Source: Selaginella moellendorffii
Taxonomy: Eukaryota; Plantae; Lycopodiophyta
Assembly: GCF_000143415.4 (NCBI RefSeq)
Contig: NW_003314261.1
Coordinates: 971,325-1,035,324 of the forward strand
Direction of reading: 5' to 3'
DNA length: 64,000 nt
Part shown: piece by piece, positions 1-44,701 of the stretch
How the letters are laid out: every line of letters begins with the position of its first letter
Position numbering within the stretch: position 1 is the stretch's first letter
Position numbers and translations under genes: made by a program
Notes under the pieces: model-generated
Database searches by the model: none
What the model saw: only the letters and a program-made list of their open reading frames with translations
What the model was told of the DNA's origin: nothing

Positions 1-2976
1 GCAATCCTTCGTATATCCGGAACTTGGTTTGAACCACTCCACAGTTACATTGAAGGAGTTAGTTTCCGCGTCCTCCTTTGCATCAGTGATGCAGTGCCCC
101 ACCCATATCATTTGTTTTTTATTACTGGGTCTGACAAGCACGACCATTCCTTTGCAGACCTGTACTGGATTGAATGCTGAATCCGGCTTCTTGTTCCTCG
201 GCCCACAATAGTGATCCTCAACATCGTTATCTGTCACTGCATTTCCAGAGGACATTATTCCGCTACTATCTGGTGCTCTGGGTTCTGGCCAAAAGGACTC
301 TTCCAATTCTTCATATACAACCGGCCCATTTTGGATAGCAGATATAATCTTCTCCCAGTATTCGAGCAAAGGCTTGCACCTCTTAAAATAGGATTCTCCA
401 CCAAACACCAACCCCCTCTTCCAGAAGGCAATATGCTGTCTAATCCCGGCCACTATACTTTCCTGGTTTTTGAGTCCATCCGGGTGCATCGGCCGTGGGG
501 AACCCTGAGGAATCATAGGTTCCCCAGTTATGGGATCTCTCTTGAAGAGTTCAATGCCATCCACTGGCAGCCACACTGTGTCCCATTCTCTCATCTTGTA
601 CCTCATCACTGGAGCACCGTCACGCATGCTGAAATGAAACTGAAGAGGCTTGGAGTGGCCAATCAGCATTTCGAATCCGTCCCTGATGTAGCCTCTTACA
701 AACCCCTTAAAGTCTGGAACCTCTGTCACAAGTGCAGCTTCAACAGTGCCTTTGATGCAATTTTGGAATTCATCGTAGAGTTGTGGGAGGGTGAGGACAT
801 TGGATCGCCGGAGGGACTCTGCCAGGTGACTGAACATGGCATCGACGTCTTCATGAGTGTGCCCAACCATGAGAAAGCCAAGTGTAACCGTTTCAAATAT
901 GCCTTTGGCAACAAGCATCGCCAAGTACGCGAAGACGTACATGTTTTTGTTCTCACTGCCAGCATTGTCTGTTTGGAGCAGAAGATGGGGTGGAAGGCCA
1001 CATCGGCCGCAAGAACTTCCTTGAGATTCTGCTTCGTTTGGATGAGGCTGTGCATTCACCGGGCGACCAGCCTCGTCGGAATGGCATGAGGCCTCACGTG
1101 ATAACCCTACAATCTGACGGCCAACATATTCACTGGGATGGCATGGGGCCCCACACGATACTGCAAGCCTTTGCTCCTCCTCCAGCTGAACCCTGTATGG
1201 GGTTCGATCGACAAGGGCCTTATGCAAGGGTTGGCCGTTCAGCTCAGTCTGCGCACTTTGCAGAGACCTTAAATGTTTTACTAGGGACGCAATCATCATG
1301 TTTGCACCCCCGCCACCCCATAGAGGTACAAAGAAGTTCCCATAGTTCTGGGCACCATGCCCATGAGCGATTATGCCAAACAGAGACACAGGCAGCTGCA
1401 TGGATGAAGAGATTGCCTTGGGGGCAGGATTGAGTCGAGGTAAGCACGTCTTTTTCTGGTCCATTTTGTCGTGGATGATGCAGAGGTAAGAGTCAGGTCT
1501 CTCCATGGAGAGAATCCTGTTATGATAATATGCAGTCCTGCAGCTTCTCTGCTCGATGTTGTGGTCGAGCCGCCTTCTAACCAACGTCTCTCGCTCTTGA
1601 GCGCTGCAAGAATTCTTTGACAAAGCCATTTTGATAGCAGTGCACTCGTCACACTTTGAAAAGCTGGAGTACTTTCCTATACTCACATCCCTGAATCTGT
1701 TGCTCCACAATCTACTAAATCTAGATTGGCTCAGCTTTCTGTAGCCATTACTCTGGAGTTCCTGATTCACATCTTCCAATATGGCCCCCTTGGTATACAT
1801 GGAAGGGAGAACTCGTTGGGTGTCTCGTGTTCCATCTTCCAAGAGGCGGGTTTTATGTGGTTGCTGCTCGCTACATGTCTCGACAAACCTCTTGAAGATT
1901 GCCTCTCCATATACAACATGACACCTGGTTTTGTGCGTACCGTCGTTCCCATGGACTGCCTGTTGAACCCTTTGTTCCTCGAACTCAGTTTTGATTCTGT
2001 AGAATGTGGTTCGANNNNNNNNNNNNNNNNNNNNNNNNNNNNNNNNNNNNNNNNNNNNNNNNNNNNNNNNNNNNNNNNNNNNNNNNNNNNNNNNNNNNNN
2101 NNNNNNNNNNNNNNCCTTCATGCAGACCAAACCCCTCTGGAAGACCATGCCCCCCACCTGATGTTCTGAAGCATCAACAGATGACCGTAATGCCTCATAC
2201 ACAAAATTGCGAGCTGCCTTCCAGGACAATGTCTTGTATCTGCCTCTCTCTCTTTCAATAGCATCCCAATCAGCTTGTTGACAGCACCTCCTCTTGCAAC
2301 AAGCAACTGTCGAGACCATTCGAACCTCCATCGCCATTTTCTGCCTTTTCGGTTCGTTGCTCAGATCCCTTTGGCTGCGCTGTAGGAAGGTGTACTTTCT
2401 TTTCCCATGAAGAGATGTTCTGTCATCAGTTGTAGTGGTGTTTGATTGTGAATCCTTCACATTCTCAAACACTAAATGCCTCAATTTCCACCGCACAATG
2501 CTTCCAATAGTCAGACTGTTTTCTTCTGTGTCAACAACCTCTAAAATCGCAACTCCAATATCATCCCAGCCCAATTCTTGATTAGCAACCGCATCTCTTG
2601 GATCGACAACTGTGGCTAAGCCCTCAGCTACCACCTCCCCCTCGGGGTTGTTTAGAAACACCTTTGCCTGAATCCATGTAGCACGGTTCTTAAGATCCAT
2701 GGAGGGAACATGCGTCGCACTTGCGCTGTCCCTAACATCTACTTTCTTCTGCAGATTTTTCAAGGCAACAACAACATTTACCCCGACGACCATCTCTCCT
2801 CGTTCAATAGCGACCACATTCCCATCGAAGACGGTCTCTACTGATACAGCAGCATTGCCTTCCCCAAGCCTTTGACAGTGTATAACAAAGTTCCGATCCA
2901 TAGACACAAGGGTCCCTTTTGCAACTCTCTTCCCACCATTCAAAATGTAAACCTTTTCCCCAACCCTGAAGGCCAT
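1..2976 (-). CDS. Sola1-like (DUF7869-type) DDD transposase, 3' end outside window
   Basis: Manual translation from ATG 2976 (MAFRVGEKVYIL...) stays open across the 100-N gap to position 1. Motifs: CCKRRCC...VC, HGN, FSKCDEC, YLCIIHDKMDQKKTCLP, GIIAHGHG, LLLQTDNAGSENKN, FLMVGHTHEDVDAMFS. C-terminal GMVVLVRP..IWVG..VTVEWF segment. Confidence 0.85.
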   Translation of the reverse strand, partial: MAFRVGEKVYILNGGKRVAKGTLVSMDRNFVIHCQRLGEGNAAVSVETVFDGNVVAIERGEMVVGVNVVVALKNLQKKVDVRDSASATHVPSMDLKNRATWIQAKVFLNNPEGEVVAEGLATVVDPRDAVANQELGWDDIGVAILEVVDTEENSLTIGSIVRWKLRHLVFENVKDSQSNTTTTDDRTSLHGKRKYTFLQRSQRDLSNEPKRQKMAMEVRMVSTVACCKRRCCQQADWDAIERERGRYKTLSWKAARNFVYEALRSSVDASEHQVGGMVFQRGLVCMKXXXXXXXXXXXXXXXXXXXXXXXXXXXXXXXXXXRTTFYRIKTEFEEQRVQQAVHGNDGTHKTRCHVVYGEAIFKRFVETCSEQQPHKTRLLEDGTRDTQRVLPSMYTKGAILEDVNQELQSNGYRKLSQSRFSRLWSNRFRDVSIGKYSSFSKCDECTAIKMALSKNSCSAQERETLVRRRLDHNIEQRSCRTAYYHNRILSMERPDSYLCIIHDKMDQKKTCLPRLNPAPKAISSSMQLPVSLFGIIAHGHGAQNYGNFFVPLWGGGGANMMIASLVKHLRSLQSAQTELNGQPLHKALVDRTPYRVQLEEEQRLAVSCGAPCHPSEYVGRQIVGLSREASCHSDEAGRPVNAQPHPNEAESQGSSCGRCGLPPHLLLQTDNAGSENKNMYVFAYLAMLVAKGIFETVTLGFLMVGHTHEDVDAMFSHLAESLRRSNVLTLPQLYDEFQNCIKGTVEAALVTEVPDFKGFVRGYIRDGFEMLIGHSKPLQFHFSMRDGAPVMRYKMREWDTVWLPVDGIELFKRDPITGEPMIPQGSPRPMHPDGLKNQESIVAGIRQHIAFWKRGLVFGGESYFKRCKPLLEYWEKIISAIQNGPVVYEELEESFWPEPRAPDSSGIMSSGNAVTDNDVEDHYCGPRNKKPDSAFNPVQVCKGMVVLVRPSNKKQMIWVGHCITDAKEDAETNSFNVTVEWFKPSSGYTKDC
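2015..2114. other. Assembly gap (100 N) inside transposase ORF
   Basis: Run of n; the flanks are in the same reading frame (VCMK...RTTFYR). Confidence 0.99.
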
Positions 2977-3330
2977 TCTGAAAGTGCAGAAAAGAAGTTA
3001 AGACCATACAAAAAATGATTGGAGAATGGCCTAAATCATAACATACCAAATAGCATGAGGCCACATGCCATTATTCAAACATGCTATTGACACCCACGTG
3101 AAATTTCGCATTCACAAAATTGGCATGAGCCCTCATGCCATCTTGATATACACACAGCTGCAGGCAAGTAAAAACATACATGACAATACGCTAGCCATGA
3201 AATTGCAAGGGCCCAAGATGGCATGTGGCCTCATGCCATTTCTAAATGTGGTCCTAAACCATTCCATGGTGAACATACCAGGAAGCACAAGTGCCGAATA
3301 TCAAGAGGAAGCGGTAGCCACACCAAAGAC

Positions 3331-3470
3331 AGTGCCGCTCGCAACACCGCAACTACTCGTAGCGCCGCTCGCAACACCGCAACTGCTCGTAGCGCCGCTC
3401 GCACAAACTGCCACTCGCATAAACTGCTGCTCGCAATGCCGCAACCGCTTGTAGACGCAAAAACCACAGC
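3331..3470. repeat. Short tandem array (~30-bp unit GCGCCGCTCGCAACACCGCAACTRCTCGTA) upstream of transposase
   Basis: Two near-exact units plus degenerate copies visible. Confidence 0.8.
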
Positions 3471-4250
3471 TCACAACGCCGCTTACACAAGCAGCGCTCA
3501 CTGCGCTCAGTGGAACCAAGAACACGGCGCACAAAAATGATAGACCTAGGAATGAGTTCGAGAATTCAAAAATAACACACGCTTGAACGTCACATCAAAT
3601 CCTCTGACAAACCAGATCTTATGATTCCTCTGACAAATTTCAAACTGAGTAGCTTCTAGACTTTGCTGTCGGAGGTTGAACTTTGTCACATCATGTCCTT
3701 GCCTCGATTCAGCTGTGCCATGTCAGTGATTCGAACTTTCCCATGCCATATCAGCGATCCGCGCCAAGATTATTCGCCGTGTAAAGGAATAATTATGCTG
3801 TGTGTGTACGTCCATTTATGGCAATATAAGGCCATACGCCATTCAAAGAATAATGCTAGTCGAGCATTTTTTGGTGCATTTTTTGGTTCAAAATTGCATG
3901 AGCCCACACGCTATAAAGTTTACCTGTACCAAAAATAGAAATAGCTTTATTTACTTGGGAATTTAAGTGGTTGAGGCATTTTTAAACTTACAAACACATG
4001 CCCTACTTACATTCATTTGGTTGCTTAAAATTCAAAAATATTATAAACCTTTCTTTTTGCATTTTCAATGTTTTCAATTATGGTTTTTGATTTTCGCAGG
4101 ACCAGCCTAGTAATCTATTTGCATCCCGTCATGTTTATAGCTAGCTTTCGTTTGTCCCCTTCGCTAGCCTGAGATACATCTGCTCGGCATCTGCCTCTTA
4201 CAGCATTTGCCCAGAAAGGGCATCTTTCTTCACGCAGCATTTGCCACATG

Positions 4251-4275
4251 TTTAGGGTTAGGGTTTAGGGTTTAG
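4251..4275 (+). repeat. Telomere-like/telo-box motif TTTAGGG(TTAGGG)TTTAGGGTTTAG
   Basis: About 3.5 plant telomeric units in the region between the divergent genes. Confidence 0.6.
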
Positions 4276-5517
4276 CAATTCAGTAGCTTGATAAACATGC
4301 AAATACAGAACTTGATGCAAAATCCTTTGATATGTCACAATGCCCCTAGGACCATAAACACATTTCAATAGAGAGGGTCCTTTCATTTCATAACTCCTTA
4401 CGTAGATCTTGGTGAAACCAGAGTTAGTGAAGTTGGTTTTTTGTGATCCCGCATCTGATTGTGATGTCCCTTTGCAGTGTCGATGGAAAGGTCAATGCAC
4501 ACCAAACTGTAGAATCTTGGAGCAAAATAACGGTCGGATCTATGGCAAATGCCCCTGAAACATTGTAAGGCTCGTGTGGTCTCATGTGGTGTCCGATCGA
4601 GATGCTTCTTTGCAGGGTCATTAAGAAGGACATTGTATACCATTCTGTAAAATCTAGTTGCGATCTAACGGTTGGATCTCCAGGAAACTCAAAACAATCT
4701 CGCGCGTGTCAGAATATTCTAGGAATATACTCCTATGTGCTCCTGAAAATGGCATGCGGCCCCACGCCATTCAAGAGATAACGCCAGATGACGCCGAGCA
4801 TTTTTTGGTGCATTTTTTGGGATCAAAATTGCATGAGCCCACACGCTTGAACGTCACATCAAATCCTTTGACAATTTATTTAGCTGAACATCTGGCATTT
4901 TTGGAAATACAAGATGCTTTGGAATATCCAATCATGCATGGTATAAATATAGCGAGGGTATTAAATGATATCCCAATCATGATCTTTCTTTTGGATTTCG
5001 CGTGCATGCAGTCCGAGGAATGATGACGTTGCGGATTTCTTTTGGATTTCACGCATGCGCGTGCCGATCCAGAAATTAATGGTGGCGCCCAAGTCCGAGG
5101 AATGATGACGTGGCGGGATTACCAACCGTTGTGACATTTCGCGCGTGTGAGGTTAGGTTTTGCATTTTGCTTCGTACTCGCGCTCGCATACTCGCCCTCG
5201 CATCGCGCTCCCACTCGCGCTCCCACTTCTCTACAGGTTTCTCGTGTGCATCGGCGTCCACTCGCGCTTGCATCACACTCGGGCTCGCATCGCGCTCGTG
5301 TGCATCGGCGTCCACTTCAAGACACACCCAGTTTATAACTTCGCCGCCAACTCCGCCGCCCACTCTGCCACCCACACGCAGCCCACTTGGTGTCCCGGGA
5401 GATTTCAGCGCCACTCTCCAACTGTAAGTGGCAGAGTAGCCTTGCTGCTATGATCCGCTGCACACACAGTGCACATTCGCCAGCGAGTCCGGTTGTCACG
5501 CCTCCATTCGGCTTCAA

Positions 5518-8500
5518 ATGGTAAGTCTTTTAGGCCAAGTAGAAAATGGCATGAGGCCACATGCCATTCAGTAGCAACATTGGCATGCACCGATTGGGCT
5601 CTCGAGTGCAGTCCGGTTACAGATGGCGTGTAGCCTCACGCCATCTTAGGATGCAGCCTTAAGACATCTGATGCAGTGGTGAATGGCGTGTGGCCTCACG
5701 TTATTTCCAGCTGCTAGCTTTTCATCTGTCAGCTCTAATTGTTGTGCATTTCTGAATAGGCGAGGAATTGCGTTCTTCTTCCAGCCACTGTCAATGTGGA
5801 TGCAGAGAAGGGGGAGGAGCTCACCAGTTGGACTTTTGGGATGAAAGGCGAGGATCTGAGGCTGTACAACACAGATGGTGGGAGAAAAGAATGCATGGGG
5901 ATCCTCATCTAAGTGACAGACACTCCATGCAGTTCCATGCAAGAATATGGACTGGCACTTGTGGTAGAGACAGCGTCTGCCTTCAAGATCCACCTTGCAC
6001 ATCCTAGCGGCTTCCCGGAGGGGGGCAGCGGCTATGAGGAATTCCTAGAGGGAGCTAGGGAGAGGTTGTCCAGGAGGCCCACAATTTCAAAGACGCTGCG
6101 GGTCTATGAAGATCACATGGAATCCACGGACCTCACCTACGGCGATGTTCAAAAACTATATTCCAACATTGAGCCGTTGAGAGTGCCTCCAGTTTGCGAA
6201 GCGAAGGGGAAGGGGGTCGATCTGGAAACTACCCCGAAGCAGAAAAGGGTGGTCAAGCTCAAGCCGACGTCCGACTCTCCTCCAAAAAAGAAGCTACTCG
6301 GTGATGCCATTGCCTTGGGTTCGAACACTACACCCACCAAAAAGAAGAGCCGCAAAGAGTAGAAAGAGCAAGAAGAGGCAGCAAAAATCGTCGCAGATAA
6401 TAGTACTTGTTACTATTCCAACAAAGTATATACAATCGACGTGAGCCGTATCGACATCCAAAGCAAATACAACCACAGGCTAGTATCTGATGAGTGGGTG
6501 GAGAAACTGAAGCAGAAGATGCTGGCAAGTCCAGTAACACCCGACATCACAGACGTGATCCCCTACTACCGAACAATGAAGGGCGAGACGAGGTTTCTAG
6601 ACTTGATCAATAGGAAGGTGTTGGACGATCAGAACATCCGGTTCTATGCCGTCTCCGGGCAGCATTCTAGCTTGGCGATGCAAGAGATAGTTGTGGATAT
6701 TATGGTGGGTGAGGAGGTGAAGAAAGTTTTCAAGACAAGAGTTGTCCGCCTGATAAAAGGCAACTCGCCCCTCCGATCTATCATATACATTTCCCACGCG
6801 CAGAATGTCAAGCAAGAAACGTGCTACAAATCGGGTCTGCACGAGACATTGGCACAAACACGGAAGCTCTAGGTTCAACTGAAGAAGCCACAAAAACCAG
6901 GACAAGGACGTGCACTAGCAACTAGCGCCTGGCAGGTAAGCCTCGTTGCATGTGGCCTCACGCCATTTCCATTGCAGGAATTCTCGAGTCTTCTCTCAAA
7001 AACACTGGGAGTCAATGACACACTCAGCATCCATAACATTCTACTCGCGACAAAAGTTGTTTTTGACAAATGGGTAGATGTGCTGAGGAGGTACCATGAC
7101 AGAGAGTTGCCAAACTCAATGGGTGTGGAGGACGGCCGGAAGCCCAATGATTTGAAGCTCAACGCCTTGCGTTTCTCGCGGTCTCTAGACGACGACGACC
7201 TTTTGACAGTGGCTAATGCTCTTCTACGTGGTGAGGTAGTCTTCAACAAGACCAAAATGACTCCCGGCCATATTGTGACATACGAGGACTTGTGCACGAC
7301 TCTGAGAGCTCGTGCGCTATTGAAGGATTGGATCTTCGAGCAAGTGGCCGTGGAGAGGGTGAGCATCGACACCACGCAAGAGATGATGGAAGCGCTAGAT
7401 TTGTCAAATGAAGACATCGACGAGTACGTGAAGGGGGCCCCCAAGTTCATCGATCTGCTGCGGGATGCCACGAAAAGTAAAGCTGAGAAGTTGGATCAGT
7501 ATCCAAATTTCATTAAGATTGATGTCGACCGCCGGCTTCAGAAACAGCTCGACCCCGCAGCAGAGGCCTATCGAGAACCTTACCGGGTATACTTGAATTC
7601 GGATGAGGATCAAAGGTGGAGGAGCATCGTTTCCCGCGGAGATAAGCAGGTCAAGAACATCTTTTGTGTGATGGACTTTACAAACGAGGAGATCACTCAT
7701 GCAGACGAAATCAGCTCCATCATTGACTTAATGGTGGGACTTGCGGAGGTGGAATCTTCAGTCCACTATATGATCTACGACTTCGAATCCTATCACAAGT
7801 TCTGGAAGGCCTTGAACGAGGTGAAGGCTCGGTTGAAAGGCAAGGAGATGTGGGAGATCCATGGGATAATGGCTAAGAAGAAGATACCGACGAATGTCCG
7901 CATCTTCACATTCGCCCTTGTTATTGGTCCTGCAGCAGAGTGGGACTGGAGTGACTTCCCAGCTTCGTTCGACAAGGCCAATCGAATTGATCTGAGGGAG
8001 GTCAATTTACCCGTGCCTGAGGAACTGAAGACGGCTATGGAGCTTTCGAATCCAAAGAAAGCTCCAGGTGCAGCATGGGAAATGCTCAGCTGGGTCTTCA
8101 ACGCAATAGCGGGTGGGTCACCTGCTTCCGACTCCAAGGGCAAATGCGTTGTCGAGTACAACTGCGGTGGACTATTCTTTCAAGCCGCACTACTCAAGGG
8201 TGTCCCGTGTGTTGCGGTGACAAACTCCATTGAAGAGGTGACTTCAATGGAGCATATAATTACAGTTGCCAAAGAAAAATAGTATCTTCTCTGCGAACCT
8301 GGTGAGTACACACTTTAAGTTTAAATGTTATCTCACAAGCTCTGTATGCAAGAGCGTGGCCACCCCCAGATGCTGAAACGGCGTTAACAGCTACTGTTGA
8401 AGATACCCATGTTGGGCCGAGCTCACAACCTGTACAAGGTAAGGTCACGTGAGGCCTCACGCCATTTTGATTATAGATCATTGTGAATATTCAGACACGA

Positions 8501-9430
8501 GGACTGAAAAGCACACTGGTGGCGCATCGAAGAAGGACAAACAGACAAGCAATAGGAAAAAAGGAGGTACAAATTATATTTGCAATGGCGTGTGGTCTCA
8601 TGCCATTCCTTGCAGGAGACACTTCTTCAAAGGCAAAACAGGCAAGCACCAGCCAAGCTCAAACTGACAGTGGTCATAAAAAGTGAAAGCACGTTGGACA
8701 GTCGTCGAGATCAGAGGCATTTGATTCGAAAAGGAAGAAGGGCAACGAAAAGATGATAGGTAATGCCTCGCGGTTATGGCGTGTGTGCTCATGCCATTCA
8801 TTGCAGATCAAGGGCTGAGTGAAGCAGGCAGTCACCACCTCCTGACTTAGATTCCTATGGCGGACTCCCCTTCCCCAATCTCAATGGAGAGGTACAATGG
8901 ATGAGGGATGCTTTTCAAGTCAGGGCCACGTTTTTCTCATCTCGTCGTCTTCGAAGGGTGCAAGAACGTGCAAAAACCATGTTAAGACAGTCGGGTGAGG
9001 ATACGGTCCTAGGTCACGCACTAAAACAGGCTATGGATGTCTTGTATTTTGAGATGGAGACTCGGCCAGATGATTTTCCCAAGATGGTCCTGGAAGAACA
9101 AGCCATCCAGCCTGAGCAGCCTATGGAAGAAATGCAGGAGGGGGATGAGGAGCCAGAGAAAGATAATGAGCAGGAAGAGCAGAAGGACGAAGAGGAGGAC
9201 AAAGAAGAGGAGGACGAAGAAGAGGAGGACGAAGAGGACTTGGATGGTCCTCACAATGGTGACGATCACAATAACGATGACGACGATGATGACGACGATG
9301 GCCAGCCTGAGGTGGCCAAAGAGCAGCGGAGGAAGGTCATACAAGACAAACCATCAGGTAAATAATAGTACATCCATTCCTAACCTTTTACCATTTCTAA
9401 CATTGTCCATGTAGGTCGCAGAGCAAATGG
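5518..9430 (+). pseudogene. Transposon cargo gene: ParB-like N-terminal domain + degenerate beta-class N6/N4 DNA methyltransferase-like fold + acidic tail; at least 4 premature stops
   Basis: ATG 5518, intron 5521-5759, then one frame through ORFs 5913-6362, 6441-6872 and 6972-8282, broken by TAA 5910, TAG 6360, TAG 6870 and TAG 8280. ParB-like IDIQSKYNHRLVSDEWVEKLKQKM...FYAVSGQHSSLAM...ISHAQN. MTase-like EMLSWVFNAIAGG..GKCVVEYNCGG.FFQAALLKGVPCVAV. Mini-introns 6936-6977, 8439-8476, 8567-8615, 8760-8806. The 3' exon structure is uncertain. Confidence 0.65.
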
Positions 9431-10239
9431 TAAGTAGAGATTATTCAGTTGAATTTACAAACTCTAGCCTTTAGTGTCGAGGAAGGATAGTGCCAAGCAA
9501 GGGTCGAAACGTATGTCCAATCCTTCAGAATCAGCAGTGCGCCCAAGTGATATCGGTCATAGTTCCTCAATAGCAGTTGATGGTAAATACAGTATAGTCG
9601 ATTCAATGTGCTAATGAGTTTGTTTTTAGTAGCACGGGAGGATACCATCTCAATCGAAGGGAGATATTTGGACATGCATATGGATCCACCAGTGGACTCT
9701 ACTTGCCTACAAGAGTCATCAGAGCTGGTGGAGGCTACTATCCATATCAACGCCAAGCAAGCTGACCACGCTCCACTTGATGCTGCCCATACCACTAAGT
9801 CAATCTTGTCCACGTATCCAACTGACGGTGACTAGGCGCCATTGGACCCGCATGAGGCCGCCCCAGCCGCCGAGCCGGTCGTATCCTCATTTCCAACGGA
9901 CTCAACGTGTGCCCAATCGTCTGACTACGCGCCGTTGGAACCTCCCTACACCGCCCCTGCTGCCTGTTCGGTCATGTCCACTTTGCCAACGGAGGCACCA
10001 ACTGAAATGGCGTGTGATCACACGTCATCGGAACCACCCCATGCCACTGTTGAGCCAGTTGTACCAGAGTCTACAGCTGAAATGGCATGTGCCCACACGC
10101 CATCGGATGCGATTGACCCCACATTGTAGAGGAGAGTATTTCCGCCCTTCACGTTTCCTCGACCAAAACCCTCTCAACGACCATCGGGAGCACCATTCGC
10201 TAATATTGTAGATGGTAAAATTGACTTGTACCATTTTTT

Positions 10240-11124
10240 ATGCTGACGCATTTCATTTCAGAGTCACGGCGAAGGTACTGTATCATTTTTGATCTGAACG
10301 GTGTCCTTTTCTCCCATGAGCGTGGCTCGTCCTCGAATGTCATTGCACCCTCCAAAGCCTGCAGTCGCAAGTTGGTCAAAAGAGACAGATTCACATTAAT
10401 CACACGGGAGAAACTGCGGGATCTAATAATGACTATGCGACACTTAAAACAGAGGGCCGGGTTCAATTTGCAATTGGGAGTTTGGACATCCATGATGCGC
10501 CACAATGCATTAACGTTGCTACAGATGATGCACGATCAGATGCGAGTAATATTACCATTTGACTTTCTCCTAACGCAGGAGGATTGCTTGACTATGGTCC
10601 ATGTGAGGGGTAGCAAGCCCATCTTTGTCAAGCCAGAGGCTGTAGTGATGAACCGGACTGCTAGGTCAAGTGAAATCCTCATCATCGATGACTCGCCGAT
10701 TAAAACTGCAACGAACACGCATACATATGCAGTGCACCCCATCTCTTGCAGTATGGAAACTAGGGAGAAGAAACCGTATGTTCTGGGGGACCTTGCAAAA
10801 CGGCTTGGAGCGATGGTGATAGAGAACCGGCCAGTCCAGGAGGTGGCTGCAGAAATCAACCAAATGGCAGATGGAACGGTATATCAGAAGCTATTTGATC
10901 GGACAGACACCAGTCATCATTTATGGCATGTATATTGTCTAGCCAAGCACTATCCGCATCTCCATAATCTGCTCAACCGGATGGGTTCTTTGACCACTGA
11001 ACATGAGCGTGGACGTATTAGAGAAGAGATGGCATTACTATTGGGTTTAAATCCTGATAGTGTGGAGAGTGATGAAATTCCAAGATTATTGTATAGGCGT
11101 TGGAGGCAAAAAATAATAGTCTGA
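10240..11124 (+). CDS. FCP1/NIF-like HAD-superfamily phosphatase domain (terminal exon; upstream exons uncertain)
   Basis: IIFDLNGVL (motif I, DxN variant), GVWTS, LLTQEDC, FVKP, ILIIDDSPIK..N...AVHP. Splice acceptor tttcag at ~10261. Confidence 0.8.
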   Translation: MLTHFISESRRRYCIIFDLNGVLFSHERGSSSNVIAPSKACSRKLVKRDRFTLITREKLRDLIMTMRHLKQRAGFNLQLGVWTSMMRHNALTLLQMMHDQMRVILPFDFLLTQEDCLTMVHVRGSKPIFVKPEAVVMNRTARSSEILIIDDSPIKTATNTHTYAVHPISCSMETREKKPYVLGDLAKRLGAMVIENRPVQEVAAEINQMADGTVYQKLFDRTDTSHHLWHVYCLAKHYPHLHNLLNRMGSLTTEHERGRIREEMALLLGLNPDSVESDEIPRLLYRRWRQKIIV

Positions 11125-11524
11125 GATGGCATGTATTTATTTAAAAATGTAACTTATTATGGCATGGGGTTCCATGCCATTGTATTAATATTAAAAGACA
11201 ATTCTTTGAGAGGATTTGCATTATACTAGAAGTGTTACAGCATGTTATTGGAAGTCTACAAAGTTGTTTTATTAATAAGGGGAAAGTAAAGATTGAATGG
11301 GGACTTGGGCTCCACCTAGACTTGGAGCAATTGAGCCAATATTAAAAGGATGGAAAGAAATTAGACGACGATGACAAGGAGAAGAGAGAGGTGAAGCAGT
11401 GGCAGGGGGAGGAGAAGTGATTGAGTAGACATTTCCTTGTTTAAAATAAAATGGCATGTGCCTCAATGCAGTTGAATTTTGTTATATTTATATACTATAT
11501 AAAGGTTTGGAAACCTTATTTTAC

Positions 11525-11565
11525 AAGTGGGATAATGACAATTCCCACTTTAACGAAATAGAGCT
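11525..11565. repeat. Right terminal inverted repeat of the large transposon
   Basis: Reverse complement GCTCTATTTCGTTAAAGTGGGAATTGTCATTATCCCACTT versus MITE end GCTTTATTTCGTTAAAGTGGGACTTTTCATTATCCCACTT. Confidence 0.85.
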
Positions 11566-12037
11566 TAAGAGAAATTAATCTGAAAAGTGATGTTCCCACT
11601 AGAACATCCTAATTTCCCACCATCTAACCATGACTCAAGTTGAGGTAAACAACTTGTGTTTACATAACCATCTTCGTGCCACCACATCTAGATTTTATTT
11701 GCATTTGCCTCATGTTCTTCTTCAAAGGATGCAACTTGCCATTATTTATAGAATTCCTTAAACACTAATTAAAACTCTAGTTTGATAAGGTGGTAATATT
11801 GGTTTAGGTTTGAGTCTAGTGGAACTTATAAGTCCTTTCATGACCTTTTAAGGGTTGACCATTCCTAAAAAGTACTCAAACACCATTCCAGTTCACAAGC
11901 TTATCAATTCACTTTAGCACAATATTGGAGAGAAACTTCCAAAATACGAAATGCTCAAAGAACGAGCACGAAGCAAGCAATAAGTGAGTCTCTAAAAAAG
12001 GGACACAAGAGGACCAACACATGATATGTGGAGGAGT

Positions 12038-12430
12038 CCGAGATGGACCTGATATGGAGTCCAAGATGGAGTCCAAGATGGACCTAAGATGGAGTCTGAG
12101 ATGGACCCAAGATGGACCTAAGATGGAGTCTGAGATGGACCCAAGATGGAGTTCAAGATGGAGTTCAAGATGGACCCAAGATGGAGTCCAAGATGGACTG
12201 ACGTGGAGTTCAAGATGGAGTTTCAGATAGACCCGAGATGGAGTCCGAAGTGGTGTCTGAGATGGACCTGAGATGGAGTCCAAGATGGACCCGAGATGGA
12301 GTCTAAGATGGAGTCCGAGATAGACCCCCGAAATGGAGTCTGAGATGGAGTCCGAGATAGAGTCCGAGATGGAGTTTGAGATGGACCCGAGATGGAGTCT
12401 AAGATGGATATCCAAAAGTATAGTAGGGAG
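12038..12430. repeat. Degenerate 10-12-bp tandem array (GATGGAGTCCAA / GATGGACCCAA) within a TE-like relic
   Basis: About 30 units visible; followed by CCAAAAGTATAGTAGGGA, also found inverted at 24835-24852. Confidence 0.85.
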
Positions 12431-12664
12431 AGTGTGGAGGTTGCCCAGTGGAGCTAGTTTGGCCAAGAAAGGCTAGTGTGACCCAGAAAGGCTATGCCCA
12501 CGTGTTGGATGATGATATATTTACTGAGGAGTCTAAAGTCAGATGTAAGCAACCAAAGGGAACGACTCGAGAGACGATCCATGGGGTTCAAATATAGAGG
12601 GAAAGGGCCCATGAACAAGAGTGCACCCCCTTTTCCAATCGGTTAAGGGTCTTGGGATAGTTGG

Positions 12665-19092: not shown

Positions 19093-19848
19093 CTACCTGG
19101 GAGAGACGGTGATGTTGCCAGCGTCCACCACTAGCTTCCCATTCCTGAATTCGCTCACGGCAGCCAGCGGCCACACAAATCCCTTCCATATCAAGCTCGT
19201 CGCCAGCGGCACATCGATGATGATCTCCTTTTGCGTGGGCTTGGCCTCAGTGCTGACAGCGATCAAGTAGCTCCGCCCAACCCATCCAATCCATCCCGCG
19301 ATGTAGAGGAAGATGAGCCCCGGATAGACGAACTCGCCCAGGTGCTGCTGATCGCCATCGACGATGAGATGGGGCAATCCATCCGCGCCACACAAGAGCC
19401 CAGCATCGCCATAGAACTTGAATCGCCGCTTGGTCTTCTCGATCGTGGCATTGATCGCCAGCGCCGGCGCGCTATCGTCGGCGTAGAGCTTGAGCCGCGA
19501 CTGGAGCTTCTTGATCTCCTTCTTCTCGCGCTTAGCAAAGGCCGCGGAATCCTTGCACTTGGTGAGGCCGGCTACATCCGCTGCTGCCTCGGGCGGCGCC
19601 GCCACGATTGGAGCGCTGCCGATGATCGCCGCCGCCGCCAGCGCAGCCGCCATTCTACCAGCATTGGATCTGGCCGCCTGCTGCTCACCCGAGGTGGAGG
19701 AAGCTTGGACGAGGAGAGACTTGGATCTCTTGGCGCTGCCGCTGCTGCCTCGAGGGGGCAATGCCAAACCCGAGAATGTGGAGCGCGAGGAGACATCCAT
19801 GGCGGGGTTCTTCAAGCTGGAGAGGGCGACGGACGATGCTGCAGCCAT
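19093..19848 (-). CDS. PSAF: Photosystem I reaction centre subunit III precursor (PsaF), single exon
   Basis: Transit peptide, then [19 protein letters not shown]...[53 protein letters not shown]...NITVSPR. Confidence 0.97.
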
Positions 19849-19928
19849 GGTAGATGGATGTTGGTGGAGAAGAGCCCCAGAAACAGAGCAAGGAGATAGG
19901 ATGATGGATGAATGGTAATCTTTGCTGC

Positions 19929-19938
19929 TACACGTGGC
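19929..19938 (-). promoter_or_regulatory. G-box (GCCACGTG) upstream of PsaF
   Basis: CACGTG at 19931-19936, ~85 bp upstream of the ATG; typical light-response element of photosynthesis genes. Confidence 0.55.
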
Positions 19939-21343
19939 TGTGCTTGAGTGGAGCACACAGGATAGCTAGATCATGTTAAATTTTAAATTAGTACTAGCAC
20001 TTAACTTTGCCTTCAAATCTGTTTTAGCCTATAGTTTAAAGGTACCATTAGGTGGATTCAAGCTTCCAGTTTTGATAAAACTTGGCAGGTTTGTAGTGGA
20101 TGTTATAAAAAACTCATAGCATCTGAAAGGTGGAATTTCCATGTTGATGAAATATTTCTACTTCTCATGACATAAAAAAAGTAAGTAGTTCAAGTTTTCT
20201 CTTGTGAGGTTCTGATTAGTTGAGTTTAAACTAAGATACGTGTTCTTAGCTTAACTTTACCTTTGGTAGTTCTCTTGTCAACTATTTGTTCATGTCCTGC
20301 TGTAGAGATCCGAATGTATTTAACTTTGAATGAGCACCATCAAGTTCAGTTGATATTTATGGCAAGTGAATATAATTGCCTGCTTCACAACTTCCCATTG
20401 ACTAAAACAGCATCTTTCTTCACCATGAAGCTATTACAAGCCATTGTAGATGCTAATTAAGCATGCAGTTAGCTTGCATCCTACCAGTGACACAAATGGA
20501 GTGGCTAAAGCAGTGGAACAAAGTTAATAATGTCACATTTCTTTGTGCTATAATATTACTCACATGCTTCCAATCTATAATAAGTATTATTTTATTAATA
20601 ATATTTAATAGTTAATTTACTAATTGAGAAATAAATTACACAATCCCTCATATATACTAAGGTTTTTCAATGTTCAATTCAGTTCATCATTTTTATAAAT
20701 AAGTTCGGTATGTGGATATTTATTAAACTTAGTGTTATATTCATATGGTATAGTCAACATAAAAGTATATGAAATTAAAATAATATATATTAATTAGCCC
20801 AAAATAATAAATTAAAAAATTCAAGAGATAAGGAAAATATATAAGTTATAAAAGAAACTAAATTAAATTTCTAAAAGGAGCTATAGTTTTGTAGCTTATT
20901 TAATTTTTAAAATGTTTTACTATTCAAAGATATAAATGTTATTTATGAGATTTACATAATAAACGTGGCTATTTTTAAGTTAACATAGAGATTCAATGTT
21001 AACTTTGAAAGTTAAAAACTTTATTTTTTAGAAATTAAATTAAATTATAAATTACGAAAATATTCATTAATAAAAATTCATACTCATGAAGATGACCAAT
21101 TTCTGTAAATATGACTGGTGAAATATCTTGTCTATTAAAGGAAAAAAAGATCAAAATTTATTTTCACATCTAGCATTTTCCAGCTAGTTTAGAATATTTT
21201 AATAAATTTTTTAAAAAAAATAAAATTCTCATTATTTACTAAATGTATAAAAATAATTTTAATTTTTTATTAACTATTAAAACTAATTTACTTGTGTTTT
21301 TAATAATATAAAAATATGCAATAATAACTATGAAACTATATAT

Positions 21344-40890: not shown

Positions 40891-43070
40891 TTATGTATCT
40901 ATCCACATCCTCAAAGAAGATACATCCACTCCAATTCTTGAGGCACACCACCTCCTCTTCTCTTTTGCCAGTTGAGTCGACAATGGTGATACTTGCTGTG
41001 TGCTCGCTTGAACAAAGTTGACGGACATAAAAACGAGCGAGTCATGAACAGGAACCACAATGTGCTCCTGTTCCTTGGGCCTGTCCATGCAGAAGTTGAT
41101 GATGAAAACCTGTGCTGAATGCTAATCATGGTAAAGAAGCGCCCTCGTCATGTGCTCGCTTATTTGTGCCATAGTACCGTTTGCAACAATCTCCACTGCA
41201 AACTTGGAGAAGTTGGTACCGTCGTGAATAAGAGAGTCACAGCGCATCCCAGACCGCCTCTGATCTGGCACAATCTCCTCCTTGACTTCAGGTAGAACTG
41301 TCGCTGGAATGCAAGGATAAGCGTGCTTCAATATGGCCTTCATGCTGCATAGAAAGAGGAACTGGTGCATGTATTCGGAGCACTCGGGCCTGCACATAAC
41401 TTCTCCGTCCAGGTTCTTGATGGCCTGAAGAAGCAGCCAGACGCGGTCCAGTCAAGTAGCACAAGGAGGTGCATCCACGTCGTCGCAGAGGGTAGTGCAC
41501 CTCCGGAGCATAGCAGTCCGAAGCAGTGGCGTTGAAATGCATACATAATATGTTTCTGCCCCACTTTCCTCATCGTCACTGTCCCAATCTGTAACTGCGA
41601 GCACCCCGTGTGCAATAAAATCGCGGAGTTGCACCAGCGTCTCGGGTCCGCAATATAGACCTGGAATCTCCAGGTACCGAATCAGCAGCTTGCACGCCTT
41701 GATATCTTGCTCCTGTTTCCGTATAAAGCCGAGAATCCTATTGTATGTAGCCTGTCCGTATGTAAGCTCCCAGGTGATACGACTCTGCTCGCCGGAGCCA
41801 GCGCCTGAACGTCCAGAGCTCCTCCTGAACAAGGTAAGCTAGGCAAGTGCCTGTGAGGCCCTTGTGACCGCCAGTCCACTGCATTATCGACGCTGCAATG
41901 CTGTCCACCTCGATGGCCACACTTGGATGATCCGCTGCTGCCTGTTGTAATGCTTTATTTCGTTAAAGTGGGACTTTTCATTATCCCACTTATGGTGTGT
42001 GGCCACATGCCATTTTTATAATAACAATAAAAAATTGAAGTTTTAATTTTATAATTTATAAATTAAAAACTTTTCATATGATTTTGTGTTATAATATTGT
42101 GAAATATAAAAAAATAAATTAAAAAACTGATAGAAATATTAATAAATATTAATTAAGTACTAGGAAATGGCATGTGGACACATGCTAATTAATGTCCCAC
42201 TTTACTGAATAAGTCCCACTTTAACGAAATAAAGCATTGTAACAGTTCCCTCACGTGTTCCAGAGTGAACCTTGAGGATGCCAGGACATGGTCGTGCGGA
42301 AAGGGAGACAGATGACTTGAAGTAGAACTTGGCATATGCGTGCGCTCAGTCCTTGCTGCATGATTGTTGTATTGTGCTTCAAGAAGATCCTTTACAGTCT
42401 CCACCCCAACAAGCAGGAAGCCGTGCAAGTTGTACGCATCCTTGTCGCTCTTGATGCTTCTGATGGTGGCAAAGAACTCGTGCACGATGTCCGACGGTAT
42501 GTTCAGCAGAGAATCTGCCTCGTCGAGGATGACAGTCACCAGTGTTTGCAGCTTGCTCCTTACGAAGAGCGACTTGAAGACGAGAGGTGTATAGCATGGT
42601 AGCTGCTGCTTGGGGAAGAGAGTGGGACACTTCAAGGTGAGGGTGTCACAGATATAGCCCCAAAAGTCATGGCTGCTCCAACTCATCCTCGCACCCTCCA
42701 GTCCATCCAGGTAGATCAAAGTTGCTTCGGACTGTAACGTGAGCTTCCTCCGAGCTGCCAGCACCATTGTCGACTTTCCACTCTGTCGAGGGCCACACAG
42801 CACGCAGTACTTGCCCTGCGCCAGGTCAGATACCAGGTCGACCATGTCGGGGGTGATATAGTAATTCGACACTGGATCGACTGCAAGCCCAGCTGCAAAT
42901 CGTCGCTTTGGACGTGACTCATTTCCAGCCTGAACCGTGTAATCGAGAGGTGGAGCGAGCTTGAAGTCTCTCGCCAGAATGATTTCCCCTGCCCTGGATT
43001 CCAGCATCAGTATATCACAACTCGTTTCGATCTCCCTCGAGATCCTCCACGCCCACCTCTTTTGTGTGCA
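40891..43070 (-). pseudogene. Crinkler-like P-loop NTPase + PD-(D/E)xK nuclease gene, disrupted by MITE, frameshift and stops
   Basis: Walker A CGPRQSGKST, Walker B VILDEAD, WTGGHKGL, C-terminal VLPEVK..RCDSLIHDG..FAVEIVA...EHMTRA..Y. Removing the MITE restores ELLQQAAADHP. Frameshift at ~41760, TGA at 41452, TAG at 41122. Confidence 0.75.
41951..42236. mobile_element. 286-bp MITE, non-autonomous derivative of the large transposon at 1-11565
   Basis: Perfect 26-bp TIR TGCTTTATTTCGTTAAAGTGGGACTT; 6-bp TSD TTGTAA (41945-41950 / 42237-42242); subterminal palindrome copies at 41992 and 42167. Confidence 0.95.
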
Positions 43071-44701
43071 CGCTTCAATTGAATTTAACTTAACCTAAAT
43101 CTTGTAATTACTAATAACAATTATTGAGCTATGTTTTTATATTTATGCGTATTATACATTTATAGTTTTTTATGTTTGACTTTTTTATTTTTTATTATAT
43201 TTTGATTGTGTTCTATATCTCTCATCTGAGGATTTTTTTAATGTTTGTATCACAGTTGAAGCTGTATAAGCACAATACTGAATTTTAGTTCCTAGTTGAA
43301 TAAATTTATCATAATGCTAATATTGCAGATTAAAAGCATTTTGTTGTATGTATTGTTCTTGCTGCTGCTGGTTGTATAGAAATTGTGTTCTTGATAATGT
43401 ATAATTATTAATTTTTTATTTGTATTCACTTAAAACATGGCTCGAATTATGGAATTTTGTGAACATAATTGTTTTCCTACTATATCAATTTCAAATTTTA
43501 TCCATAATATTTCTTTATTTTGAGATATATATTTCATACTAAGCCATCTTGTGTTTTTATATTTAAAGTATCTCAATTTTTATTTCTTTTTTTATTATTA
43601 AGCTTCCTGGAACATTTTGTATTACTTGATCATTATGTTTCTTTACTTGTTTATTTGTATAAAGTACAATTTGTTGTTATTTTTTATTAATTATCTCTAT
43701 ATTTTCTTCATTTTGCTCAGATGTTCTTATTCTATTTAGTTATCATCCTTTTGTCTCATTATTTCTGTAAGTTCGTCCTTCCATGGATGTATAACTAGTA
43801 AATGAGTAATAATAACTCATATTGTTTATTAGGAGAAAACTTCACTGTGACAGGCTCCATAATAGAAAAAGTGTTATAAAGCTTGAAGTGGGTTTTCTAT
43901 CATATTAGTCATGTTTGTAATTGCTATTGACATTTTTGGTATGGACAAAGAAAATAAAAAAGCATAAAATTAGCATTAACCATCATTAAAGATGACCTTT
44001 TTATTGATTTTTATCCCAGGTATAAACCATTTTTTATATCTTATCCACCAACACCACCATTTCTGTTAAATTGACCATACAATATCCATCATTAACAAGG
44101 TTGAGAAACCATGCAACTACAAGCACACACACACACACACACTTCCAGAAACTTCGAAAGCATGTGTTTAATTTAATAGATCCTTTTTTGTCATATCAAC
44201 TTGAGACTACTGGATCCTTAAGCTCTACAAATGGCTAAGATTGCTTTTGCTTTGCAAATATTCCACTGGTCAGAGATTAGGTCCTCCACCAAGAGGTTGG
44301 CCCGCATCACGTCATGGGAAGAGACGCTCGACAAGATCCAAGCTTGGCAGTCCAACGCTCTCCATCACGTAAGTTTCAATGTTGTTTTCTCATAGTTCTC
44401 TCTTTTAAGTTTTACTTTGTCTCACTCGTTAGGGGGAGGATTGCTGTTCTACCCGATCGGATGCTGGATCATTGAAGCTCTAAAGCTGTAGACCAAGAGC
44501 ATATGTGCCAAATACCAAGAGTCATGCCTGGCTCACAGGTTCGTCTTTGAGATCTTCACTTGCTAGAATATCTAGGTGCTGCCAAGACGATCTTTTCAGA
44601 ACAGTTACATTGGACGCACGACTCATCGCCCTCGGAAGTTAGGGCTCAAGAGTTGGAGGGGAAGACCCAAAGTTTTTGGAGAGGAAAATCCTTTCGTCCA
44701 A

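Follow-up and report, generated by a model that had tools for sequence, protein, structure and literature searches.

Sequence-specific escape from, or steering of, host silencing by a mobile element is known in detail for one system, the VANC proteins of the Arabidopsis VANDAL elements. In VANDAL21, a Mutator-like element, the protein that binds the motif is an accessory protein of the element itself and lifts silencing, and chromatin immunoprecipitation (ChIP) of VANC21, as described in the text of PMC5735166, places this protein element-wide in introns, intergenic DNA, and terminal noncoding DNA. A second system, in which ParB-like accessory genes occur together with inverted repeats, was proposed in 2025 for giant transposons of algae, without binding data. 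In the Sola1 element of Ectocarpus, a ParB-like and DNA methyltransferase gene lies opposite the transposase gene and was proposed to bind and modify its own element (PMC12477816, text), and in red-algal Plavaka elements, arrays of inverted repeats lie beside a ParB-like gene (bioRxiv 10.1101/2025.02.11.637652, text). Here, we describe a 22-bp palindrome that recurs over a large DNA transposon of the land plant Selaginella moellendorffii. The whole stretch of DNA analyzed, referred to as the window, comprises 64,000 nucleotides (nt) of NW_003314261.1 (971,325 to 1,035,324, forward strand); its positions 1 to ~11564 are the right-hand 11.5 kb of the transposon, the left end of which lies outside the window. 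The host of the palindromes is a high-copy DUF7869 transposon, here termed putatively Sola-like. From the sequence, we predict that the palindromes are binding sites for a dimer of a protein encoded by the element itself (probability of about 0.7).

Position and sequence of the palindromes

The ATGGCRTGWGGCCWCAYGCCAT pattern gave 17 matches in the window at ≤3 mismatches, 15 in 1081 to 10103 and 2 at 41992 and 42167, and 0 matches in 100 dinucleotide-preserving shuffles of the window (expected number, 0). A scan at ≤6 mismatches recovered 21 copies, namely, 19 in 1081 to 11472 and 2 in a miniature inverted-repeat transposable element (MITE), and no copy in the remaining ~52 kb of the window; the weakest copies were those at 1138 and 11159 (4 mismatches), 4828 (5 mismatches), and 11451 (6 mismatches). 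The consensus of the aligned 21 copies is a perfect 22-bp dyad, and many copies reach 24 bp (AATGGC...GCCATT). A preliminary description of this DNA had claimed about 20 copies of a perfectly dyad-symmetric word over the whole element, two subterminal copies in the MITE, and none in the other ~50 kb. All 19 element sites and both MITE sites that it listed were recovered, with coordinates that were right except at two sites, off by 1 to 2 bases (3893, not 3895, and 4828, not 4829). The dyad consensus and the absence from the rest of the window were likewise borne out, while the spread over the whole element held across the visible 11.5 kb, its left end being beyond the window. The motif had 0 exact matches in JGI metagenome contigs and 0 across 596 Gb of prokaryote genomes, and within the 64 kb, none of the host genes holds a palindrome copy or has one nearby. 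The palindromes are real, family-specific cis elements.

The visible part of the element carries a transposase gene on the minus strand and a divergent, multi-exon accessory gene on the plus strand. The palindrome copies and the predicted introns of the two genes are located as follows.

1081 to 1102: palindrome, 2 mismatches; within the transposase gene, in an open frame of its variable linker (either coding or intron)
1138 to 1159: palindrome, 4 mismatches; same transposase linker as the 1081 copy
2979 to 3278, minus strand: predicted 5' untranslated region (5'UTR) intron of the transposase gene, 300 nt (CTG/GTATGT...CTTTCAG/A ATG, read from the sequence), with three palindromes
3050 to 3071: palindrome, 1 mismatch; transposase 5'UTR intron
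3120 to 3141: palindrome, 2 mismatches; transposase 5'UTR intron
3218 to 3239: palindrome, 0 mismatches; transposase 5'UTR intron
3279 to 5517: region between the divergent genes (shared promoter region), with internal direct repeats
3893 to 3914: palindrome, 3 mismatches; between the two genes
4749 to 4770: palindrome, 2 mismatches; between the two genes
4828 to 4849: palindrome, 5 mismatches; between the two genes, duplicate of the 3893 unit
5521 to 5759, plus strand: predicted first intron of the accessory gene, 239 nt, beginning just after the ATG, with three palindromes
5546 to 5567: palindrome, 0 mismatches; accessory first intron
5623 to 5644: palindrome, 1 mismatch; accessory first intron
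5683 to 5704: palindrome, 2 mismatches; accessory first intron
6936 to 6977, plus strand: predicted 42-nt phase-0 GT..AG mini-intron built round a palindrome; in frame without a stop, so that frames cannot prove splicing
6945 to 6966: palindrome, 2 mismatches; in the 42-nt mini-intron
8302 to 8351, plus strand: predicted 50-nt intron without a palindrome; 3' AG restored in the family majority
8439 to 8476, plus strand: predicted 38-nt GT..AG mini-intron with a palindrome inside; phase-consistent open frames on both sides
8444 to 8465: palindrome, 3 mismatches; in the 38-nt mini-intron
8567 to 8615, plus strand: predicted 49-nt GT..AG mini-intron with a palindrome inside
8585 to 8606: palindrome, 1 mismatch; in the 49-nt mini-intron
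8760 to 8806, plus strand: predicted 47-nt GT..AG mini-intron with a palindrome inside; phase to the next exon misfits in the window copy
8776 to 8797: palindrome, 2 mismatches; in the 47-nt mini-intron
10007 to 10028: palindrome, 3 mismatches; open frame of a repetitive Pro/Thr/Ser-rich stretch
10082 to 10103: palindrome, 1 mismatch; same Pro/Thr/Ser-rich stretch as the 10007 copy
11159 to 11180: palindrome, 4 mismatches; 3' noncoding
11451 to 11472: palindrome, 6 mismatches; subterminal
41992 to 42013: palindrome, 1 mismatch; abuts the left terminal repeat of the MITE
42167 to 42188: palindrome, 3 mismatches; separated by 6 bp from the right terminal motif of the MITE

None of the 19 element copies overlaps the 6668 bp (57.6%) of conservatively defined coding DNA, an outcome with a probability of ~8e-8 if sites are independent and of 1.9e-4 if they are counted as ten clusters. 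These ten clusters are evenly spaced, with a largest gap of 1912 bp, and 1.3% of random placements were as even. Palindromes precede both genes, with three copies in the first intron of each, and the predicted 5'UTR intron of the transposase gene ends right before the start codon. Within the accessory gene, each of the four mini-introns (42, 38, 49, and 47 nt) is almost filled by one palindrome. Their donors are of the AG/GTAAG type and their acceptors of the TGCAG or TATAG type. The exons flanking 8302 to 8351, 8439 to 8476, and 8567 to 8615 join in one phase with open frames, and one exon is open in no frame but the required one. Introns were called from sequence signals and reading frames; in one run (X20), which is RNA or possibly DNA, the contigs were unspliced across the intron sites. 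Five further putative introns of the accessory gene carry no palindrome, that at 8302 to 8351 and four of 45 to 57 nt between 9357 and 10260, so short introns are normal for this gene.

The symmetry of the word was examined by its variation among copies. Covariation of paired positions was absent in the 21 copies, in which 80.1% of the cells pair compared with 81.3% (standard deviation, 1.4) in column shuffles, 419 of 500 shuffles being as good. At the two variable position pairs of the palindrome, the two sides vary independently. The dyad therefore consists of two half-sites that each keep the consensus, rather than of compensated pairing, and this independence argues against a hairpin.

Variation between copies of the element was read from 5500 to 8830, a stretch in which the window and the family majority of the reads disagree at 43 places. 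None of the 40 differences listed (of 43) falls inside the seven palindromes of this region, so the palindrome variants, including the R/Y positions, belong to the family. By the same comparison, the R/Y positions were ruled out as CpG decay private to the window copy. The private changes of the window copy are almost all of the C-to-T type (13 in CG, 9 in CHG, and 12 in CHH among the 34 listed), a pattern that methylation in every context would be expected to leave in a plant element. CpG loss was 0 of 9 in the palindromes and 14 of 158 overall, a difference that is not significant and is uninformative on selection. Loose contig ends at 5544 and 8466 were considered as rearrangements and rejected, since they are cross-matches of contigs from other palindrome copies, and a separate set of contig placements showed no such joints. 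Outside the window copy, the palindrome at 6945 to 6966 has part of its left half-site duplicated (12 nt) in one clone-like run, and several contigs break there; palindrome sites seem prone to small rearrangements.

The MITE and the right end of the large element share their termini, as given below.

11525 to 11564: right terminal repeat of the large element, an inverted pair of AAGTGGGA; other family copies diverge after 11566 to 11570
41952 to 42235: MITE, 284 bp, with the terminal repeats of the large element, AAGTGGGA pairs, and one palindrome per end

An exact 16-mer of the right terminus of the large element recurs at both ends of the MITE, and both MITE palindromes adjoin these repeats, a subterminal position that agrees with the preliminary description. 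The right terminus of the large element ends in ...CCCACTTTAACGAAATAGAGC; the termini end in ...CGAAATAGAGC, and CACTA termini are not present. The word AAGTGGGA has 11 copies in the window compared with 2.08 expected, 6 of them at the three visible termini. It is a second, strictly terminal cis word, distinct from the palindrome, with two copies per terminus (11525 to 11564, 41952 to 41991, and 42195 to 42235), the pair being inverted at two of the termini and direct at the third. A possible 6-bp target-site duplication, TTGTAA, seen in this one instance, lies at 41945 to 41950 and 42237 to 42242 if the MITE is bounded by T41951 and A42236. The right end of the MITE overlaps the 3' end (42189 to 42235) of a P-loop open reading frame (ORF) at 42189 to 43094 on the minus strand.

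Palindrome arrays in related transposons

As relatives, we used 33 loci from metagenome contigs scanned with the transposase alignment. The closest relatives (~40% identity) have intact, intronless ORFs of ~1060 amino acids (aa) and palindrome arrays of their own upstream of the gene. In locus L001, a stretch of 1.2 kb holds 9 copies of TTTGGCCATATGGCCAAA-type words as detected by the repeat finder and one more recognized by eye; the array is directly upstream of the intronless transposase ORF, and the locus has no other ORF of ≥100 aa. There are 4 copies of AGGCTCAAACTTGGGTTTGAGCCT in locus L006, 3 of a similar word in L003, and 2 in L005, the palindromes of these three loci being of the GCTCAAAC..GTTTGAGC types. 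Among the distant, decayed relatives (28 to 36% identity), six nonredundant loci yielded 14 24-bp near-palindromes, of which 10 are centered on TGGCCA (e.g., TTCATTTGGTGGCCACCAAATCAA); shuffles of these loci gave 0 to 0.6 near-palindromes per locus. In locus L030, one such palindrome is flanked on both sides by transposase coding blocks and enclosed in a GTAAGT...TTCAG unit, an arrangement repeated in a second copy of the element at this locus. As judged by the sequences of these loci, dyad words of 18 to 26 bp in noncoding pockets are a trait of this transposon group, and the words differ between families. Sharing is partial: the GGCC center is common to the window family and the distant set, and ATTTGG arms are common to L001 and the distant set.

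No terminal repeats were found in the contigs of the relatives, which therefore probably represent only parts of the elements. Two further words were seen near the transposase stop codon, namely, a 16-bp palindrome, GGTGTTTATAAACACC, conserved just downstream of the stop (L001, 5170; L002, 2128; L008, 4029), and in L001, ~180 bp past the stop, a TTTTAACGAAAT word like the terminal repeat of the window element.

Encoded proteins and predicted function

The genes of the element and their parts are the following.

1 to 2997, minus strand: transposase gene, encoding the DUF7869 catalytic domain; ORF continuing past window position 1, start codon at 2974 to 2976
2016 to 2114: assembly gap (run of N) inside the transposase gene
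5518 to 11124, plus strand: accessory gene(s), multi-exon, divergent from the transposase; starts ATG/GTAAGT; window copy with in-frame stops
6363 to 6869, plus strand: exon part with a weakly ParB/Srx-like domain (language model, 0.92; PHROG E value, 0.21)
6978 to 8279, plus strand: large exon, amino-methyltransferase-like by language-model features alone (0.88)
10225 to 11124, plus strand: exon with a NIF/FCP1-like phosphatase domain (PF03031; E value, 3.8e-5; 23.9 bits versus a cutoff of 21.8)

The DUF7869 domain (PF25273) of the transposase was matched with an E value of 5.8e-43 (147 bits versus a cutoff of 26) and was found in 19 of the 20 relatives tested. A homology search with the transposase gave 64 homologues, the named ones coming from liverwort (Riccia), cnidarian, sponge, and lancelet; in the literature, no paper was found under "DUF7869." The source organism carries very many copies of the family: from a single DNA run, 50,833 contigs were placed on the 11.7 kb. 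The front domain of the transposase gave weak TNP1/En-Spm Pfam matches (E value of 0.012 for the window and a best E value of 6.6e-4 in 3 of 20 relatives). An AlphaFold model of the transposase of one relative (P0007), built from a 20-sequence alignment, reached a pLDDT of 71.7; in it, an RNase H-like core is accompanied by a C-terminal beta domain, by two beta-barrels at the front, and by a helical region that contains a beta-hairpin. Foldseek gave no match to this model at an E value of ≤0.001, and no structural superfamily was assigned; the weaker matches pointed to PIWI and TnsB for the core and to tandem Agenet/Tudor/BAH/KOW readers for the front barrels. The resemblance of these barrels (residues 10 to 86 and 122 to 201) to tandem Agenet/Tudor/BAH readers of histone marks is weak (E values of 0.03 to 0.2). 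The modeled barrels, together with the weak TNP1/En-Spm matches, hint at a transposase that may read chromatin.

The accessory gene seems to join a weakly ParB-like front, a methyltransferase-like middle, which at 0.88 is a lead, and a NIF/FCP1-like phosphatase tail. For 6363 to 6869, the language-model features lie near ParB N-terminal clusters (score, 0.92; rank, 30), which is weak evidence, and the PHROG match to ParB (E value, 0.21) is below any threshold. The features of 6873 to 8279 lie near clusters of N6/N4 methyltransferases (0.88), to which all of the 10 best named matches belong. The accessory ORFs matched no family except NIF; in particular, PF02195 (ParB N-terminal) was not matched, no helix-turn-helix (HTH) family was matched by 6978 to 7250, and there is no ParA-like ORF among the ORFs of the element. 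In the phosphatase-like tail, the first catalytic box reads DLNGV, with the second Asp replaced. Of the in-frame stops, three (at 5910, 6360, and 6871) are private to the window copy, and those at 8280 and 8683 are not listed as private. The combination of ParB-like, methyltransferase-like, and phosphatase-like parts is not described in the literature consulted.

The avoidance of coding DNA, the independent half-sites, the arrays of their own in the relatives, and the copies in the MITE together make a site for an element-encoded dimer the best-supported explanation of the palindromes. This had also been proposed in the preliminary description, and in this respect it stands, while the options it offered for the binder were not separable. 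On each dyad, one subunit would contact each outer half-site (ATGGCGTG), with the GGCC center at the dimer axis. With sites tiled along its length, the whole element would be covered or marked by the protein once bound. This protein may keep the two promoters open against host cytosine methylation, as VANC does, or alternatively deposit a mark, if the methyltransferase-like part is active. A site by each terminal repeat would bring nonautonomous MITEs under the same control, and the mini-introns may be the way in which the element houses sites within long coding stretches. The suggested analogy with VANC holds for the noncoding distribution, in that introns, intergenic DNA, and terminal DNA are the locations described in the text of PMC5735166, but no VANC-like protein was seen. 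As the predicted binder, we tentatively favor the weakly ParB-like accessory protein over the transposase.

The suggestion of parS-like loading sites is not supported in its strict form, that of a CTP-dependent clamp. The CTP-binding box of ParB is an arginine-rich GxxRxxA, and the aligned place of this box reads GQHSSLA, with no arginine; the ParB label itself is weak. A rather unlikely extension of the dimer-site reading is that the element marks itself, in that a protein with ParB-like, amino-methyltransferase-like, and phosphatase-like parts loads at parS-like palindromes ≤2 kb apart, some of them in ~40-nt mini-introns created for this purpose. Such a protein would spread or act locally, and the element and its MITEs would be recognized as "self" and kept transcribable. 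If it exists, such a system would be the first in a land plant, with introns kept for a DNA-level purpose.

Several points weigh against binding by a dimer of the accessory protein. The coding set omits the linker at 1073 to 1160 and the repeat stretch at 9587 to 10129, where 4 copies lie in open frames; therefore, at worst, 4 of the 19 copies are coding. The ParB-like and methyltransferase-like parts have no sequence match in Pfam, NCBIfam, or PDB, tblastn of the accessory parts against phages gave no match, and a 469-aa accessory exon has no homologue in 5.8 billion proteins, searched twice. A single-sequence AlphaFold model of the accessory protein was useless (pLDDT, 34). In the 33 related loci, five accessory ORF pieces gave 0 tblastn matches, and the 132 ORFs of 8 long loci included matches to DUF7869 but 0 Pfam matches to NIF or ParB. 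For ParB, only the tblastn result counts, because the ParB-like exon of the window has no Pfam match either, and the missing accessory gene is weak evidence because the contigs are short, without terminal repeats, or decayed. In addition, word similarity does not simply track transposase similarity, since relatives at 40% identity have other centers and those at 28 to 36% share GGCC. Beside each of its terminal repeats, the MITE keeps a palindrome, which points to a part played in transposition itself, and the relatives without an accessory gene favor the transposase, the only protein detectably common to all palindrome-bearing loci.

That the transposase is the binding protein, with its front part binding as a dimer to sites like the subterminal motifs of En/Spm, Ac, and P, is nevertheless doubtful. 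The copies by the terminal repeats would then help to build the cutting complex, and the internal ones would be autoregulatory or tolerated extras. This fits the 284-bp MITE, which retains just the terminal repeats and one palindrome per end, and the arrays directly upstream of intronless transposase ORFs in the closest relatives. The P0007 model also offers a possible DNA-binding domain in its helical region with a beta-hairpin (residues 254 to 360), ahead of the catalytic core. However, the transposase sites known from other elements usually lie no more than a few hundred bp from an end, and 15 of the 19 copies here lie >1 kb from the visible end and are evenly spread. The terminal word AAGTGGGA would be the more natural transposase site, the lack of parallel between motif and transposase similarity is unfavorable here as well, and Foldseek gave no DNA-binding-domain match, the front barrels being weakly like readers of histone marks. 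The transposase had been one of the options raised at the outset; it retains support from palindrome-bearing relatives in which no accessory gene was detected, and it is not separable from the others.

Two explanations without an element-encoded binder were also weighed. Function as RNA or DNA hairpins, either as a splicing element of tiny introns with CTCAY as the branch site or as remnants of introner-like mobile hairpins, is very improbable. It would account for the four copies that fill GT..AG mini-introns and end 4 to 11 nt before the 3' AG, all with T at position 14 so that CTCAY lies ~17 nt before the AG, and three with a shared tail, GCCATT..TTGCAG. On RNA folding, two of these mini-introns fold well (−14.5 and −16.2 kcal/mol; z scores of −2.5 and −1.7), but the other two fold no better than shuffles (z scores of −0.15 and −1.2), and pairing among the copies was no better than in column shuffles. 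Most copies lie in intergenic, 5'UTR-intron, or terminal DNA or in the MITE, where splicing is irrelevant, the arrays of relatives lie upstream of intronless genes, five other putative accessory introns do without a palindrome, and no host gene of the window has one. It is improbable, too, that the words are sites of a host transcription factor collected as enhancers, the center being like GGCC-type plant promoter words, or functionless internal duplicates. Positions in both first introns and in the promoter region that the genes share would suit the former, and two pairs of copies (3893 and 4828; 10007 and 10082) were indeed duplicated together with their flanks. The seven copies checked are identical to the family majority, and selection after insertion is not readable from the window copy. 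For a host factor, though, one fixed sequence would be expected, yet related elements have different arms, each palindromic, and no copy lies near the host genes of the window. A 22- to 24-bp dyad symmetry in 21 copies is not made by duplication alone, and strict coding avoidance and even spacing argue for constraint.

Some features of the window lie apart from these sites. Plant-type telomere-like repeats (TTTAGGG) occur inside the element at 4255 to 4285, and some family copies have a similar TTTAGGG-like run inserted at 5893 to 5980. A degenerate tandem array with a 12/23-nt unit (GAGATGGAGTCC-like) occupies 12028 to 12444, from ~460 bp past the right end of the element. The window is otherwise land-plant DNA, with a PsaF gene at 19093 to 19965, a bHLH gene near 27.6 kb, and a Ty3-type reverse transcriptase at 46 to 48 kb. 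The Ty3-type reverse transcriptase ORFs lie in a 4.5-kb segment between 114-nt arms (44698 to 44811 and 49310 to 49423) that are 96% complementary; inverted instead of direct repeats round such a segment are unusual for a long terminal repeat (LTR) element.

Comparison with described systems

In bacterial partition, parS sites are dispersed palindromes read by a ParB dimer, and the protein could spread over kilobases. The window element resembles this arrangement in its several dispersed palindrome copies but differs in a site of 22 bp rather than 16, in the lack of a ParA partner among its ORFs, in a CTP box that is not kept, in the lack of a detected HTH, and in a motif absent from the 596 Gb of prokaryote genomes. 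In En/Spm, a CACTA element, the noncatalytic TnpA protein reportedly recognizes 12-bp subterminal motifs, partly as inverted pairs, near the ends and the promoter. The likeness here lies in a two-protein element and in the weak TNP1/En-Spm Pfam matches of the transposase front; unlike En/Spm, the window element has no CACTA termini, its sites extend over 10.4 kb rather than being subterminal only, and its motif is longer and dyad-symmetric. The window system is thus neither a member of the parS/ParB partition family nor a CACTA element. An introner-like element was also rejected, as no copy of the unit occurs in the host genes within the 64 kb.

The closest parallel in distribution is the YAGTATTAY motif of VANC21/VANDAL21, likewise a short motif that is limited to one transposon family, lies in introns, intergenic DNA, and terminal DNA, and varies between families, according to the text of PMC5735166. 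The VANC motif described there is 9 bp long, nonpalindromic, and arranged head-to-tail at high density in tandem repeats, whereas the window element has a 22- to 24-bp dyad, single or in loose groups of two or three. Its transposase, moreover, belongs to another superfamily than that of VANDAL21, and no VANC-like protein was seen in the window element. In gene organization, the nearest counterpart is Sola1-1_Ec32, as far as the text of PMC12477816 describes it, a large DNA transposon that also has an accessory gene on the strand opposite the transposase and which, by the weak evidence given above, the window accessory gene would resemble in beginning ParB-like and continuing methyltransferase-like. 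In red-algal Plavaka PAG3, the inverted repeats were proposed in print as the own sites of the accessory protein (bioRxiv 10.1101/2025.02.11.637652, text), much as we propose here. Unlike these algal elements, with which it was compared by description only, the window element is in a land plant and has a NIF/FCP1-like phosphatase domain, its sites are spread over the whole element and in mini-introns rather than in arrays beside a gene, and its ParB-like and methyltransferase-like assignments reached no curated threshold.

In the literature, no description of this palindrome was found, the figures and supplements of the cited papers being outside the scope of the search. The element offers a compact land-plant test case, with a defined 22-bp dyad, ~20 copies that include natural variants, two candidate binders, and a 284-bp MITE with two sites. 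If the mini-introns are real and are kept for the sites, they would also demonstrate that a mobile element is able to shape its own intron-exon structure for a DNA-level function. Already known in kind are the VANC motifs and the ParB-like genes with inverted-repeat arrays in algal transposons. New are the land-plant host, the 22- to 24-bp dyad placed evenly over the element, its location in mini-introns and in the first introns of both genes, and the series of palindromes that are specific to their families.

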